A DNA stretch of 57,997 nt, the filler included, from Nitrospirota bacterium (lineage in GTDB: Bacteria; JACPQY01), in NCBI GenBank assembly GCA_016180645.1. It is 3 parts of 3 records of this genome, joined end to end, with 100 filler letters (N's around TTAATTAATTAA, not from the genome) between each part and the next. Parts side by side here need not be neighbours in the genome. Positions count along the whole stretch, not along the records: positions 22,067 to 35,996 come from JACPAV010000017.1; 2 more parts are not named here. One strand, 5' to 3'. The notes beneath the pieces were generated by a model. That model worked only from the letters and a program-made list of their open reading frames with translations, searched no databases and was not told the origin of the DNA. The position numbers and the translations under genes were made by a program. This document shows positions 12,262 to 30,175 of the stretch, in pieces (within the stretch, counting starts at the first letter, position 1; each line of letters starts with the position of its first letter).

Positions 12262-12333
12262 AGACGCAGGCGTAAAGCCTGCGCCTACCGAAAGAGAAGA
12301 TGCCTGTTGGTAGCCGCGGGCTTCAGCCCGCGT
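12262..12333. repeat. GTAG-type REP-like palindrome pair
   Basis: ACGCAGGCGTAAAGCCTGCGCCTACC and GTAGCCGCGGGCTTCAGCCCGCGT. Related copies near 17196, 27700, 28962-29030, 30192-30247, 36097-36152 and 44155-44222. Confidence 0.75.
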
Positions 12334-17170: not shown

Positions 17171-17264
17171 TCCACCGTGGAGATGACCCATCCTTGGTAG
17201 GCGCAGGCTTTATGCCTGCGGTTGTCCGCTTCAAGAGGATCAGATTGTGTCTGGAGGTGTCAGC

Positions 17265-21966: not shown

Positions 21967-22066
21967 NNNNNNNNNNNNNNNNNNNNNNNNNNNNNNNNNN
22001 NNNNNNNNNNTTAATTAATTAANNNNNNNNNNNNNNNNNNNNNNNNNNNNNNNNNNNNNNNNNNNN
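21967..22066. other. Artificial contig linker
   Basis: N-run, TTAATTAATTAA, N-run. Confidence 0.98.
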
Positions 22067-22721
22067 TGTCCTTCAAGATGCGAATGGTCGTTTCGAGGGC
22101 CAGCCCAGCGCGCTGGGCAAGATCCTGCCGCCGGATCGGGGGGAGCGGTACGGGGAGGTTGTCGAGTCTGGGTGTATGGCCCCTCACCGCCACCGCCAGG
22201 ATCTCCGCCACGCGACGGTAGGAGCCGTGGTAGGCCATCGTCAGGGCGATTTCCTCCGCCTGGCCGACCTGCTCGGCCAGCTGTCGAATCAGCCGCATCA
22301 TGAGGGTCGGCTGTCGTTTCAGGAGGTCGAAGAAATATTCCCTGTCCAGGAAGGTGACCACGGAGAGCTCCGTGGCCTCCACCGTGGCGGAGAAGGGTTC
22401 ATCCAGCAGCAGAGAGCGGTAGCCGACCAGCGTTCCGGCGCGGCCCAGGCGGACGGCCAGTTGGTGCCCGGATTCGTCCGTCTTGCACACCTTGGCCTGC
22501 CCGCTGCAAAGAAGGAAGACGCCGTGGGGGCGCACCCCTTCGTGGGCGATGACTTGGTTCTTTTTGTATCGGTTGGCGATCAATCGCTCCTCGATCGTCG
22601 CCCTCTCGGAGGGATCAACCCCGGAAAAATAGCAGTGAGAATTGACGAGGCACTCGCCGCAACCGCAAGTGGCGCGGGTACGCGCCGCCGATAGTTTAAG
22701 CCTGCTCGACGCGGCGGCCAA
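22067..22721 (-). CDS. Crp/Fnr family regulator with N-terminal Cys cluster (3' truncated by the gap)
   Basis: CGCGEC...HC, cNMP-binding domain, RQDLAQRAGLALETTIR HTH. Confidence 0.88.
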
Positions 22722-26019: not shown

Positions 26020-26817
26020 ATGAGCAAGATCAAGCCCCGCAGAGTGACCCCACGAGAGAAAACAAAGAGGTCGAGGAAGCCTCGCCCGGGGCGTTGGTCT
26101 GAATCTCTTCAAGCGAAGGCCAACCGTCTCGAGTCCGTCCTGTTCATGGCAGTGGGGGTCGTTCACGATTTCAATTCTGTCCTCACGGGGGTTCTGGCCT
26201 CCTTGGAAGGGGCAAAGTCGGGCATCGAGCGCGTCCGCGCCGGGGCCATCGCGGACGCAGAACGGTCGGCTTGGAAGGCGCGGGAGCTTACAGCCGAACT
26301 CATGGCCGTCGCCGTGGACCGGCCGGAAAAACGCGAGCCCCTGGACCTTGTCGAATTGGTCCGGCGTTCAATGAAATTTGCCCTGCGGGGTGGGTGCGTA
26401 CGCTGTGTGGAACGATTCGGCGACAACATCCGGCCCGTCGAAGGAAGTCGGAATCAGATCGGCCGGGTCATCCACAACCTGGCCCTGAACGCGCGGCAGG
26501 CGATGCCAAAGGGGGGAACCGTTCGTGTCGAGATCGTGAACGCGGCGCTGAGGAAGAGCGTTGGGAGGGGTCTTTCCAGGGGCGACTACGTGAGAATCAC
26601 GCTGACCGACGAAGGACCGGGTATCCGGCCGGAGAGCCTGGGAAGAATATTCGAGCCTTTCTTCACGACGAAGGAGGGCGGGAGTGGGTTGGGCCTGGCC
26701 GTCGCCGCCGCCATCGTCAAGGCGCACGGGGGCGCCATCACGGCCGGCTCGGGATCGGGGGCCACCTTCAGCGTGTATCTCCCTGCACGACCACCGGCTT
26801 TGAAGCCGGCGCCCTGA
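26020..26817 (+). CDS. Histidine kinase core (HisKA + HATPase) without sensor or receiver domain
   Basis: GVVHDFNSVL H-box, NLALNARQAM, DEGPGI and FEPFFTTK..GSGLGL. Confidence 0.8.
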   Translation: MSKIKPRRVTPREKTKRSRKPRPGRWSESLQAKANRLESVLFMAVGVVHDFNSVLTGVLASLEGAKSGIERVRAGAIADAERSAWKARELTAELMAVAVDRPEKREPLDLVELVRRSMKFALRGGCVRCVERFGDNIRPVEGSRNQIGRVIHNLALNARQAMPKGGTVRVEIVNAALRKSVGRGLSRGDYVRITLTDEGPGIRPESLGRIFEPFFTTKEGGSGLGLAVAAAIVKAHGGAITAGSGSGATFSVYLPARPPALKPAP

Positions 26818-26842
26818 AGGGTCTCCGCGCCCCCGGGTGGGC

Positions 26843-26899
26843 TTGACAGGGATCCCGTCCGATACTACAGTGTCTATAGTTTCGATACTTAGAAACTAT
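26843..26899 (+). promoter_or_regulatory. Sigma70 promoter plus palindromic operator upstream of the ArsR-family gene
   Basis: TTGACA-N17-TACAGT, then ATAGTTTC-N8-GAAACTAT (26876-26899) overlapping the ATG. Confidence 0.7.
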
Positions 26900-27233
26900 G
26901 GGAAAGACCGAAAACGACCGGAGGATCTTTGAGCTGCACGCGCAGATCTGCAAAGTGCTGTCGAATCCGAGGCGGCTGGAAATCATTCACCACCTGCGGG
27001 GGGCCGAAGGAACGGTGAAGCAACTCGTCAACGCCACCGGGTACCCCAAGGCGAACTTGTCGCAGCATCTGAGCGTCATGCGCGCGGCGGGACTCCTCCG
27101 ATCGAGGCGGAATGGACGGGAAATCCACTACCGCCTGGCTTTTCCGAAGATGTTGAAGGCGTACGATCTGCTTCGCGAAATCCTCTTCGAACGGATGCGG
27201 GAGCAGTCAAGAATGTTGGGAGGCAAACCATGA
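26898..27233 (+). CDS. ArsR/SmtB family repressor
   Basis: ICKVLSNPRRLEI...NLSQHLSVMR...RRNGREIHYRL. Confidence 0.92.
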   Translation: MGKTENDRRIFELHAQICKVLSNPRRLEIIHHLRGAEGTVKQLVNATGYPKANLSQHLSVMRAAGLLRSRRNGREIHYRLAFPKMLKAYDLLREILFERMREQSRMLGGKP

Positions 27234-28942
27234 GAGTGCTGGACGAAAGCCGGGGAGGCGTGAAGTCGGGCGAACGGCTGGATTTGAAGGGCGCGGGGCT
27301 GCCCTTGGAAATCCGACGGGCGGCCCTGATCGTCTTCTGGAAGGGTCGCTGACAGACCTGCCGGCAGGAGGCTCCTGCCATACGAGGCGTGGCCGAGAAG
27401 TTCGGCCCGAAGGGACTTGATGTGGTCTACGTGGGCGCCATGGAGACCGCAGAAGATTGTGAGCGGTGGAAAAAAGAATACGGCCTGCCCTTCCCCGTGA
27501 TTCCGGATCCCGAGGGCCAACTGTTCAGGCGGTTCGCCAACGGTTGGGTTCCTTTCAATCTGCTGGTGGGTCCGGACGGTCGAGTTGTGTTCTGCGAAAA
27601 TGAGTTCGATGAAGCGGGCTACTCCCGCGAGATTGCGCGATTGTGCGGGGAACCGGCGCGCCCCCCATCCGCTCCTTCCCCCACAAGGGGGGAAGGGATG
27701 GTAGCCGCACCCTTCATGGGTGCGTCTTCAGACGCAGGCATTAAGCCTGCGCCTACCCCCTCCCCTTCAAAGGGTGGGGGTAACCACTCTAGCCCGCAAA
27801 CCATCGTCATTCTTGGCGGAGGGACAGGAGGCATCGTGGCCGCCCATCACTTGCGCAAGAGACTGCCGCGCGAGCACCGGATCGTCCTGATCGACCGTTC
27901 GGAGTCGCATCTCTTTGCCCCCTCGCTCCTGTGGATGATGGTGGGCCTGCGTCGCGCCGAACAAATCCGACGGCCGCTGATGCGTCTGAAATCGAAGGGC
28001 ATCGAATACCATCATGGAAGTGTGAATGGGATCGATACCGAGAATCGAATGATCCATGCCGATGGAGCGGATATCCCTTACGACCACCTCGTGATTGCCC
28101 TCGGTGCGGAGACGGCGCCGGAGTCCATCCCGCACTTTGAGGATAAGGCGCACAATCTCTACTCCGTGGAAGGCTGCACCCGATTGCACGAGGCTCTGGA
28201 AAGCTTTCAAGGTGGAGCGATCACCGTGCTGATCCCGTCCATGCCGTTCAAATGCCCGGCCGCACCCTACGAGGCGGCCTTTCTGGTGGAAGCATTCGCT
28301 CGGAGGAGGGGAATCCGCGACAAGACCGACATCCATCTCCTGACCCCTGAGCACCAGCCGATGCCGGTGGCTGGGAAACTGCTGGGTGGGGCCATTGTGG
28401 AGATGCTGCGAAGCCGCGGGATTCACTACCATCCGTTATTCACGTTCAAAGAGCTGAACGGTGCGGAGGAACGGGTGGTGGCCGCGGACGGTCAGGCGGT
28501 GCGGGCGGGACTCCTGATCGGAATCCCGCCGCACCGTGCGCCGGCCGTGGTCCGCGAGGCGGGGTTGGCGGGAGTTTCCGGATGGATTCACGTGGATCCC
28601 CACACGATGAAGACGCAGGTGGACGGTGTGTACGCGATCGGCGACGTGGCAGCCGTCAAGCTCCCCAACGGAAAAATGCTGCCCAAGTCCGGCGTGTTCG
28701 CGCATTTCGAGGCGGAGGTGGTTGCAAAGAACATCGCCGCGGAGGTGGGCGGAGAGGGCGGGAACGCGGCGTTTGATGGCAAGGGTTATTGCTGGGTGGA
28801 AACGGGCGATGGGAGAGCCGGCTTCGCGAGTGGAAACTTCTTCGCGGAGCCGGAGCCGCGCATCACGATGCATAGACCAGGCCGGATGTGGCGATGGGGG
28901 AAGCTTGCGTTCGAGCAGTGGTGGCTCCGGCATTGGTTCTGA
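27230..28942 (+). CDS. Thioredoxin/peroxiredoxin-fold (UxxC, Sec41) domain fused to an SQR-like FAD-dependent oxidoreductase; candidate selenoprotein, 570 aa
   Basis: ATG 27230 overlaps the ArsR stop (ATGA, SD GGAGG). LIVFWKGR-TGA(27350)-QTCRQEAP is in frame with track ORF 27389..28942. Trx fold (LPFPVIPDP, WVPFNLLVGPDGRV) then ILGGGTGG, PFKCPAAPYE, YAIGD, LPKSG and GKGYCWVETG. Confidence 0.85.
27363..27379 (+). promoter_or_regulatory. Putative bacterial SECIS hairpin
   Basis: GGCAGGA-GGC-TCCTGCC; loop G is 18 nt after the TGA. Confidence 0.72.
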
Positions 28943-29185
28943 AGCGAGGCCGGTGATCAAGCACGCGGGCTGAAGCCCGCGGCTACCGGCAACGCTTGGT
29001 GGAGCGGTAGGCGCAGGCTTCATGCCTGCGTTGTCTCGACTTCGCGCCGCTCATTTGACGGATGTGTCTGATCCACATTCACCCGTTCTCCCACCGCGGA
29101 GTTGCTTGACGCTCGGACAGGGGCCATGTAGCGTCGCTGCCGGGAGGAAGTGTCGGGCTCAGCTCGACGAGAAAGGAGTGCGTCC

Positions 29186-30175
29186 ATGCTTCGAACTCAA
29201 CTGACCGATCTGCTCGGGATTCGTCATCCCGTTATCCAAGGGGGACTCCAATGGTTGGCCACCGCTGAACTGGCGTCGGCGGTCTCTAATGCCGGCGGAC
29301 TGGGCACGATCTGCGCCCTGTCGTTCGGCTCGGCCGACGAATTTCGCAGCGAACTGAAGCGGATGAAGGACAGGACCGACAAGCCGTTCTGCGTGAATCT
29401 CTCGATGCTTCCCATGATGGGCGACAATGAAGTCTACGGGATGTACATCGACATCCTGATCGAAGAGGGCGTAAAGGTGGTGGAGACGTCCGGCCGGAGT
29501 CCCGAAGCGTTTGTGCCGCAATTACATGGCGCGGGGATCAAGATCATCCACAAAGTTCCAGCGGTGCGGTTTGCGAAGAAAGCGGAGGGTGTGGGGGCGG
29601 ACGCGGTGACGCTCGTCGGATTCGAGTGCGGAGGCCATCCGGGACTGGACGACGTGACCAGCCTCATCCTGATTCAGAAAGCGGCGAAGACCCTCAAAGT
29701 CCCTGTCATCGCGGCGGGAGGCTACACGGATGGTCGGGGGCTCGTTGCGGCCCTCGCTCTGGGGGCGAGCGGGGTGCTGATGGGCACGCGCTTCGTGGCC
29801 ACGAAGGAATGTATCGTTCATCCCAACTTCAAGGAGTGGATGCTGAAGGCGCAAGAGACGGACACGATGATCGTGGAGCGCAGCATTCGCAATCCCGCGC
29901 GCGTGCGGCGCAACAAGGCCGCAGAGGACGTGCTGGAGCTTGAAAAGCAGGGCGCCACGCTGGCGGATCTCCTGCCACACATTGCCGGCAAGATGGGTTT
30001 GGAAGCCTATCGCTCGGGCGATCTGGACAAGGGCGTCATCGCCTGCGGTCAGGCCGTGGGGTTGGTGGACGACGTGCCGACGGTGAAGGAATTGATGGAC
30101 CGGATCATTGGCGATGCGGAAAACACGATGGACGGCCTCCGTTCCTTCCGCGTCAACGGAGCCGGGGGGCGGTAG
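29186..30175 (+). CDS. Nitronate monooxygenase / FabK-like flavin oxidoreductase
   Basis: PVIQGG, AVSNAGGLG, GFECGGH, IAAGG and GVLMGTRF motifs; SD AAGGAG. Confidence 0.9.
   Translation: MLRTQLTDLLGIRHPVIQGGLQWLATAELASAVSNAGGLGTICALSFGSADEFRSELKRMKDRTDKPFCVNLSMLPMMGDNEVYGMYIDILIEEGVKVVETSGRSPEAFVPQLHGAGIKIIHKVPAVRFAKKAEGVGADAVTLVGFECGGHPGLDDVTSLILIQKAAKTLKVPVIAAGGYTDGRGLVAALALGASGVLMGTRFVATKECIVHPNFKEWMLKAQETDTMIVERSIRNPARVRRNKAAEDVLELEKQGATLADLLPHIAGKMGLEAYRSGDLDKGVIACGQAVGLVDDVPTVKELMDRIIGDAENTMDGLRSFRVNGAGGR

Follow-up and report, generated by a model that had tools for sequence, protein, structure and literature searches.

This study analysed a window of 57,997 nucleotides (nt) of DNA from the Nitrospirota bacterium JACPQY01 (assembly GCA_016180645.1) and focused on a two-gene unit in which the gene of an ArsR/SmtB-family regulator overlaps a gene that joins a thioredoxin-fold domain to a flavoprotein of the sulfide:quinone oxidoreductase (SQR) type. 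The second gene, referred to here as the fusion gene, contains a single in-frame TGA that is very probably read as selenocysteine (Sec, U). The genes and features of the unit are as follows.

26898..27233, plus strand: ArsR/SmtB-family regulator gene, 111 amino acids, with C18 as its single Cys
27219..27233, plus strand: GGAGG ribosome-binding site with a 6-nt spacer and an ATGA overlap at 27230-27233, read directly from the sequence
27230..28942, plus strand: fusion gene, 570 codons, one in-frame TGA
27257..27649, plus strand: thioredoxin-fold domain (AhpC-TSA/Redoxin, ResA-like), residues ~10-140
27350..27352, plus strand: TGA very probably read as selenocysteine, U41, in the motif U-Q-T-C (FWKGR-U-QTC)
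27363..27379, plus strand: hairpin resembling a selenocysteine insertion sequence (SECIS), GGCAGGA-GGC-UCCUGCC, with a 7-bp stem and a 3-nt G-first loop, starting 11 nt after the UGA
27797..28939, plus strand: flavoprotein domain of the SQR/flavocytochrome c sulfide dehydrogenase (FCSD) type, residues 190-570, with the GGGTGG flavin adenine dinucleotide (FAD) motif, C342 and C521
28883..28936, plus strand: Trp-rich C-terminal helix (residues 552-569 in the AlphaFold2 model), candidate membrane anchor

Probable recoding of the in-frame TGA

The frame is open from 27230 to 28942 apart from the TGA at 27350-27352, and its start overlaps the ArsR stop. The initial annotation had described the ATGA coupling and a frame that reads FWKGR-U-QTC and continues through KCPAAPYE and GYCW, and all of these elements were present. 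We then looked for the same two-domain architecture in other genomes, as that annotation had proposed, and found it at 15 public-genome loci. The orthologues are single genes and not pairs of separate genes: 14 of the 15 loci have one unbroken frame of 537-559 codons that contains a single TGA, at codon 40 or 41, and the remaining locus (L032) is frameshifted. The TGA codon was kept in 16/16 full-length loci (these 15 and the window). Among 301 sampled genomes of the class holding one of the fusion loci (L019, genome G041), the N-terminal domain matched 19 times in 18 genomes, and 19/19 matches carried one TGA. The U/C variation that the initial annotation had suggested seeking did not appear in either set.

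The 40 codons 5' of the TGA are conserved as protein across four phyla, for example in the motifs M-[KR]-V, G-L-P, and L-[IL]-V-F-W-K. U41 and C44 align to both cysteines of the ResA CxxC motif, and U41 falls on the first of them; the TGA accordingly occupies a Cys-aligned position with coding conservation on both flanks. Decoding of the TGA as Sec at codon 41 is, on this comparison of sequences, very likely.

Bacterial SECIS hairpins lie shortly downstream of the UGA. A hairpin with G in its apical loop begins 11 nt after the UGA in all 16 sequences, and it is kept in 16/16 loci with the loop GGC, GUC, or GUG. Its seven-pair core was paired in 104 of 105 cells over the 15 distinct sequences, and one pair was compensatory, being A-U in 10 and G-C in 5 of them, in two separate sub-clades; the change couples a Gln-to-Arg replacement with a synonymous Pro change. 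The "strong" SECIS-like hairpin of the initial annotation is thus present and conserved, but its energy is unexceptional, the 81-nt stretch around it showing no unusual stability (z -1.35). An Rfam search of 26700-29200 with E up to 1 returned zero matches. Because one pair alone covaries and the arms encode conserved residues, the RNA evidence is supportive and not decisive.

The genome encodes the machinery for Sec insertion. SelA (556 bits), SelB (370 bits), and SelD (357 bits) all scored above their family cutoffs, as did a tRNA-Sec (73 bits), for which ARAGORN gave the anticodon tca. The selD gene (L104, G000:C25:71685-72605) itself contains one in-frame TGA, and SelD of this genome is probably a selenoprotein too, judged by its reading frame. 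In two further genomes (G023 and G036), redoxin-like matches with a single in-frame TGA each are probably ordinary peroxiredoxin-like (Prx-like) selenoproteins.

Domain architecture, family distribution and partner genes

The redoxin domain matched PF00578 (AhpC-TSA) with 46.7 bits (cutoff 26) and Redoxin with 42.2 bits over residues 31-128. Its invariant features are U41, C44, C77, and a GWVP motif that aligns to the cis-Pro region of ResA. The AlphaFold2 model, built with 15 sequences (mean predicted local distance difference test score (pLDDT) 75.7, predicted template modelling score 0.75), contains a thioredoxin fold predicted with confidence, followed by a flavoprotein domain and, at 552-569, a terminal helix. 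The domain combines PF00578 with U-Q-T-C, as Prx-like selenoproteins do. Prx-like thiol:disulfide oxidoreductase selenoproteins are typically small single-domain proteins, whereas here the redoxin is the N-terminal module of a flavoprotein of 540-570 residues, and each of the 14 intact orthologues joins it to 380 residues of flavoprotein. The entry for this group in a 2026 review of prokaryotic selenoproteomes (Table 1 of PMC13188914; PF00578, UxxC) shares with it the AhpC-TSA/Redoxin fold, the U-x-x-C motif, and a hairpin right after the UGA.

In the flavoprotein domain, Pyr_redox_2 (90 bits) and FCSD_central (27.5 bits) matched residues 191-482 and onward. The best sequence matches in the PDB were human SQOR (E 2.5e-30), flavocytochrome c sulfide dehydrogenase, and Acidithiobacillus SQR, and a Foldseek search with the AlphaFold2 model placed SQRs at the top (TM score 0.79, normalised to the target). 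PFKCPAAPYE aligned to PVKCAGAPQ of SQOR and GYCW to YTSCP, so that C342 (codon 28253-28255) and C521 (codon 28790-28792) correspond to the Cys residues of the KC and SC motifs, taken here as Cys201 and Cys379, the catalytic pair of SQOR. C342 and C521 do not vary in alignments of 17 and of 15 sequences; the claim that the flavoprotein keeps both SQR-type Cys motifs was therefore borne out. The domain thus shows an FAD-binding Rossmann motif, an SQR fold, and two redox-active Cys positions. The Trp-rich C-terminal helix is conserved in all orthologues and is a candidate anchor of the protein to the membrane.

The best NCBIfam model was NF049943, a type III SQR selenoprotein subtype (249 bits, E 5.7e-74). 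Membership was rejected, as the score falls short of the cutoff of 525 bits and the SQR domain contains zero TGA codons; the protein is related to this subtype without belonging to it. All NCBIfam models stayed below their cutoffs for the fusion protein. Both are SQR-type flavoproteins using Sec, as the review's table lists the NF049943 family (PMC13188914), but NF049943 proteins carry Sec inside the flavoprotein in an HxxU motif, whereas here the flavoprotein is all-Cys and Sec lies in the added domain.

In a word-indexed search across 5.8 billion proteins, 8000 candidates were scored and 4286 of them matched at E 0.001 or better. Of these 4286 matches, the best 120 were 448-504 residues long with 52-61% identity, besides the window genome's own 368-residue call (P0003), which begins at residue 203. 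The U position was reached by 0/16 aligned homologues drawn from the best 120 matches; four of the 16 started at the residue right after U and 12 further on. We further employed HMMER with the N-terminal domain against 1.84 billion representatives, one per 50%-identity cluster, and found no protein covering residues 1-135 at >40% identity. The matches listed at >47% identity started at residue 55 or later, with the window's own 40-residue fragment as the sole exception, and those covering the CxxC were generic redoxins at 21-40% identity. The family is cut short in every public gene call examined because the calls start after the TGA. A Cys form of the fusion was absent from the protein searches, the 301-genome sample, and the 1.84-billion scan; a rare one could be hidden within the 50%-identity clusters of that scan.

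By record titles, the fusion is present in Acidobacteriota, Thermodesulfobacteriota, and Gemmatimonadota and mainly in Actinomycetota (Gaiellales/Thermoleophilia). Samples of 401 Acidobacteriota-side and 401 Desulfobacterota-side genomes each yielded the seed genome as the sole match, and the window genome's one relative of the same family is an SQR part alone, at 49% identity. Judged by these matches, the fusion is a multi-phylum family spanning at least four other phyla and not a one-off. One Vicinamibacterales locus (L016:4001-5257) has a fused-clade SQR domain and the last redoxin residues, with stops breaking the upstream frame; decay of this copy or an error in the assembly may explain the break.

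We compared the surroundings of 80 related loci, comprising 17 fused or partly fused, 62 standalone, and one short piece (L035) left unclassed. A DsrE-like gene (PF02635, E 1e-5 or better) was nearby in 47/62 standalone loci and in 0/17 fusion loci, which indicates that the Sec redoxin occupies the place of the DsrE-like gene. The DsrE-like genes matched PF02635 at 75-87 bits; among the 41 matches at E 1e-15 or better, 25 lay directly upstream on the same strand and 32 had C-G-[TS]-C. At the standalone loci (L043, L062, L075, and 44 others), this gene carries the motif C-G-[TS]-C-M-D-A-R-G and mostly lies directly upstream; no description of the pair of a DsrE-like and a standalone SQR-like gene was found in the literature searched. 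A gene of another kind, DrsE_2-type, is present at one fusion locus (L029).

In a tree of 74 SQR domains, the 17 fused rows all fell to the same side of a branch with a Shimodaira-Hasegawa-like approximate likelihood ratio test (SH-aLRT) support of 100, and the window was sister to the other 16. The tree left out L032, L033, L035, L037, L072, L081, and L093, and its midpoint root is for drawing only. This topology is consistent with, and does not prove, a single origin of the fusion.

Several other neighbours were observed. ArsR-rhodanese fusion proteins of ~225-255 residues adjoin many SQR-like genes (L027:914-1588 and ~20 standalone loci), the domain pair being confirmed with Pfam for L027 only, and they are a candidate type of sulfur-sensing regulator. 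A second SQR-like or Pyr_redox_2 gene lies directly 3' of the fusion at L030:5796-6944 and L017:4248-5255; in L017, an OsmC gene then also follows 3' and a DsbD-thioredoxin gene lies upstream.

Proposed mechanism and alternatives

Standalone relatives mostly carry a DsrE-like gene where the fusion has its Sec domain, and we therefore infer that the Sec domain serves the SQR module as its built-in partner in sulfur or redox chemistry. The recoding, the architecture, their conservation, and the complementary pattern of DsrE-like gene and Sec domain form the established part of this account. For the remainder, we favour with moderate confidence a scheme in which the SQR module oxidises sulfide and the tethered selenolate unloads or resolves the sulfane sulfur in place of a DsrE-type carrier. 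The unit would consist of an ArsR repressor and a translationally coupled selenoprotein of 570 residues. The ribosome would read UGA codon 41 as Sec, directed by the hairpin 11 nt downstream. In the product, a thioredoxin-fold domain of the ResA/TlpA kind, cytoplasmic and with U-x-x-C as its active site, would be tethered through a disordered linker to a membrane-peripheral SQR-type flavoprotein. As the SQR module oxidised sulfide, electrons would pass via FAD to quinone and sulfane sulfur would be left on the Cys pair. The tethered selenolate would then attack the persulfide or polysulfide and remove or resolve its sulfur, which is the presumed job of the separate DsrE-like carrier in standalone relatives. 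What the enzyme acts on, which way sulfur and electrons move, and what signal ArsR responds to are all inferred in this scheme. A bolder version, in which an obligate Sec redoxin has replaced the DsrE-type carrier, with a Se-S intermediate at the SQR site and sulfide oxidation that depends on selenium, is put forward only tentatively.

Among known flavoprotein-rhodanese enzymes, CoADR-RHD and Npsr reduce persulfides at the expense of NAD(P)H. Sulfur unloading by the Sec domain is supported by two precedents. Methylacidiphilum has an H2S-induced type III SQR operon with TusA-like and DsrE2 genes (PMC10205796), and SQR-rhodanese fusions have been reported (PMC9163753). Type III SQRs, including that operon, resemble the present system in the SQR fold, FAD motif, two redox Cys, C-terminal helix, and linked small partner, whereas here the partner is fused, thioredoxin-fold, and Sec-using, and type III is only the class of the nearest NCBIfam model. 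Similarly, the SQR-rhodanese fusions (PMC9163753) and the flavoprotein-rhodanese persulfide reductases (3ict, 6pfz) combine an enzyme of the flavoprotein disulfide-reductase type with a small sulfur domain, but that domain is a rhodanese with a single Cys, in contrast to the thioredoxin fold with U-x-x-C found here. The initial annotation had proposed a sulfide/persulfide (or selenide) module; a sulfur or persulfide role is plausible from the neighbourhoods of the relatives, but the ArsR is not of the BigR/SqrR type.

Several points weigh against the favoured scheme. The U-x-x-C motif is a signature of dithiol/disulfide exchange, and persulfide carriers such as rhodanese, TusA, and DsrE rely on one Cys. 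Gene context varies among the 14 fusion loci examined, with ArsR upstream in ~5, rhodanese in 3, and unrelated genes beside the others, and the window gene's own neighbours include no other sulfur genes. The type III assignment comes from the nearest NCBIfam model alone (249 bits against a cutoff of 525), the window ArsR lacks the BigR/SqrR Cys pair, and the frame across the linker repeat described below rests on the genome assembly alone.

The main alternative, which we consider unlikely though with some claim to attention, is that the protein is a selenothiol:quinone oxidoreductase, in which the flavoprotein re-oxidises the tethered redoxin (or reduces it with sulfide) without acting on free sulfide, and the redoxin is the true catalytic end, acting on another substrate such as a disulfide, persulfide, or peroxide; it would then be the flavin-based counterpart of DsbB-DsbA or of VKOR-thioredoxin fusions. 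The placement of U41/C44 exactly on the ResA CxxC, a dithiol/disulfide exchange site, agrees with this alternative, as does the invariant third Cys of the redoxin domain, C77. The C-G-[TS]-C motif in 32 of the 41 DsrE-like partners means that both kinds of partner share a two-Cys motif, and Sec at the nucleophilic position is typical of the redox-exchange selenoproteins in the review's table (PMC13188914). However, the protein retains the complete SQR fold with both of its Cys, and the relatives are called SQR; the neighbours DsrE, rhodanese, and TauE point to sulfane sulfur and not to a foreign substrate, and no conserved candidate substrate gene lies beside the fusion.

The linker between the two domains, which the initial annotation had not recognised as an inserted repeat, raises the question of whether this copy is intact. 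Two repeat features lie at the locus.

27657..27782, plus strand: in-frame copy of a genome-wide structured repeat (~126 nt), making up most of the inter-domain linker
29006..29031, minus strand: partial copy of the repeat just downstream of the fusion stop, 26 nt, 96% identity

The linker repeat had 57 other matches in the window genome (G000), folded as RNA at -73.9 kcal/mol (z -5.26), and is read in frame, the linker being ~25 residues longer than in orthologues. Residues 141-186 had pLDDT <50 in the AlphaFold2 model, indicating disorder. Further stretches of the repeat occur in the window at 12262-12289 and 17196-17220, with copies elsewhere at L008-L014, and other copies fall inside open frames of 725-2081 codons. 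A CheA gene of the same genome (L014) also carries the repeat in frame, between its Hpt and dimerisation domains. Rickettsia palindromic elements are a known case of repeats that sit in frame within protein-coding genes. The present repeat resembles them as a short, structured, genome-wide repeat placed in frame at a tolerant inter-domain site, but it comes from an unrelated organism and has an unrelated sequence, and the in-frame cases checked here are the fusion gene and CheA.

We also examined Logan contigs of four DNA runs, all of one study and three of them possibly the source of the window DNA. One contig ended at 27713 and the next began at 27712, and zero contigs bridged the repeat. 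The depths on either side of the break were 40.4/37.4, 9.57/8.6, 9.58/8.88, and 4.3/3.51 in the four runs. Separately from this break, N runs around a ttaattaattaa spacer at 21967-22067 join two contigs in the window, and the fusion lies on the second (G000:C13).

These data bear on the possibility that the copy in this genome is damaged, the repeat insertion or a misassembly separating or frameshifting the domains, so that the family and not this copy works as a fusion. The number of repeat matches, the contig break shared by all four runs, and the public gene call that begins at residue 203 would fit such damage. We nevertheless consider it improbable: the frame stays open through the repeat with no insertions or deletions against seven other copies, the linker length varies naturally among orthologues and disorder is predicted there, and CheA carries the same repeat in its own linker. 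The adjacency of the two halves is regarded as safe because the contig depths agree on both sides in all four runs, each half has one match in the genome, and both halves fall in the fused clade.

The regulator bears on a further alternative, and two more features precede it.

26843..26871, plus strand: sigma-70-like promoter TTGACA-17-TACAGT, with 10/12 consensus matches, assigned by consensus match alone
26876..26899, no strand assigned: inverted repeat ATAGTTTC-N8-GAAACTAT, candidate ArsR operator, its 8-nt arms 100% complementary

The promoter was the single site found in a scan of 26700-29200, against 0.3 expected in shuffles, and a terminator scan of the same interval found none. The palindrome covers the expected transcript start and the ArsR ATG. 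The ArsR/SmtB protein matched PF01022 (winged-helix HTH_5; 45 bits, cutoff 22) and NF033788 (76.9 bits, cutoff 55). The promoter scan, the inverted-repeat check, and these family matches located the promoter, the perfect palindrome, and the ArsR gene where the initial annotation had placed them. From this arrangement, ArsR is predicted to act as a repressor, probably by binding the palindrome that overlaps its start codon. Of five related ArsR genes, two (L062 and L046) have their own 7-8 bp inverted repeat just upstream, at the gene start; these differ in sequence, and no common operator sequence was found among the related ArsR genes. The L062 locus has the order ArsR-DsrE-SQR, and its ArsR is 52% identical to that of the window.

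C18 of the window ArsR sits in an HAxxC motif that is kept in 6/6 members of its own subgroup, and this subgroup adjoins SQR-like genes in very different lineages. BigR/SqrR repressors are likewise ArsR/SmtB winged-helix repressors adjoining sulfide-oxidation genes, but their sensing Cys pair lies in helix 2 and near the C-terminus. In an alignment with BigR (3pqj), the helix-2 Cys position is His31 of the window ArsR, the C-terminal Cys is absent, and the lone C18 falls one helix before the BigR helix-2 Cys. A BigR/SqrR-type identity was rejected, as both sensing Cys are absent and NF040642 scored 46.3 bits against a cutoff of 155; the initial annotation, which had taken the single Cys for the helix-2 Cys in its comparison with BigR/SqrR, was mistaken on this point.

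The Thermoleophilia fusions (L024, L025, L029, and L030) follow another ArsR subgroup, one with a C-terminal CC motif. ArsP (L025:3431-4606) and ArsC (L032:5626-5922) adjoin the fusion, and together with the CC-motif ArsR these neighbours hint at a link to arsenic. They would favour a metalloid-sulfur substrate such as thioarsenicals or selenide in place of sulfide, with ArsR as a metalloid sensor, and an SQR crystal with bound selenide exists (3sz0, by its entry title). This alternative appears very doubtful, since the window ArsR belongs to the other subgroup and has no CC motif, zero ars genes lie near the window gene, and ars-type neighbours occur in only 2/14 loci.

The weakest alternative takes the TGA as an ordinary stop that ends a 40-residue peptide, with a separate protein of 517 residues starting at GTG 27389, exactly the two products of Table 11 open reading frame calling and in line with the public gene calls examined, which all begin after the TGA; this is extremely improbable, given that the 40 upstream codons are conserved as protein in four phyla, the TGA is never another stop or a sense codon, a later start would delete the first strand and active site of the thioredoxin fold, and the SECIS-like hairpin and complete Sec machinery are present.

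Novelty and significance

Prx-like UxxC redoxins and a type III SQR that carries Sec internally both have entries in the 2026 review of prokaryotic selenoproteomes (PMC13188914). A redoxin-SQR fusion does not appear in its passages on fusion, FAD, quinone, and PF07992 (PMC13188914), and no description was found in the full-text literature searched; the deep-Sep and BSepDB papers likewise yielded nothing relevant, though supplementary tables could list the family. The initial annotation had not recognised the fusion as described, which agrees with its absence from the selenoprotein table of the review (PMC13188914).

For genome annotation, calls of 470-500 residues labelled "FAD-dependent oxidoreductase" or "SQR" need extending where they begin just after a TGA. 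If the favoured scheme of sulfur unloading by a tethered selenolate is true, the fusion would be a two-domain, phylum-crossing addition to the prokaryotic selenoproteome, and it would tie selenium use directly to sulfide and sulfane-sulfur metabolism. Unusually, a Cys-containing orthologue was not found in these searches, which suggests that the chemistry truly requires the selenol. The upstream DsrE-like gene of the standalone relatives and the fused Sec redoxin form a natural experiment on sulfur unloading from SQR-type enzymes. If sulfide oxidation does depend on selenium in the stronger sense proposed above, sulfide detoxification or sulfur trafficking would be tied to selenium supply in some lineages.

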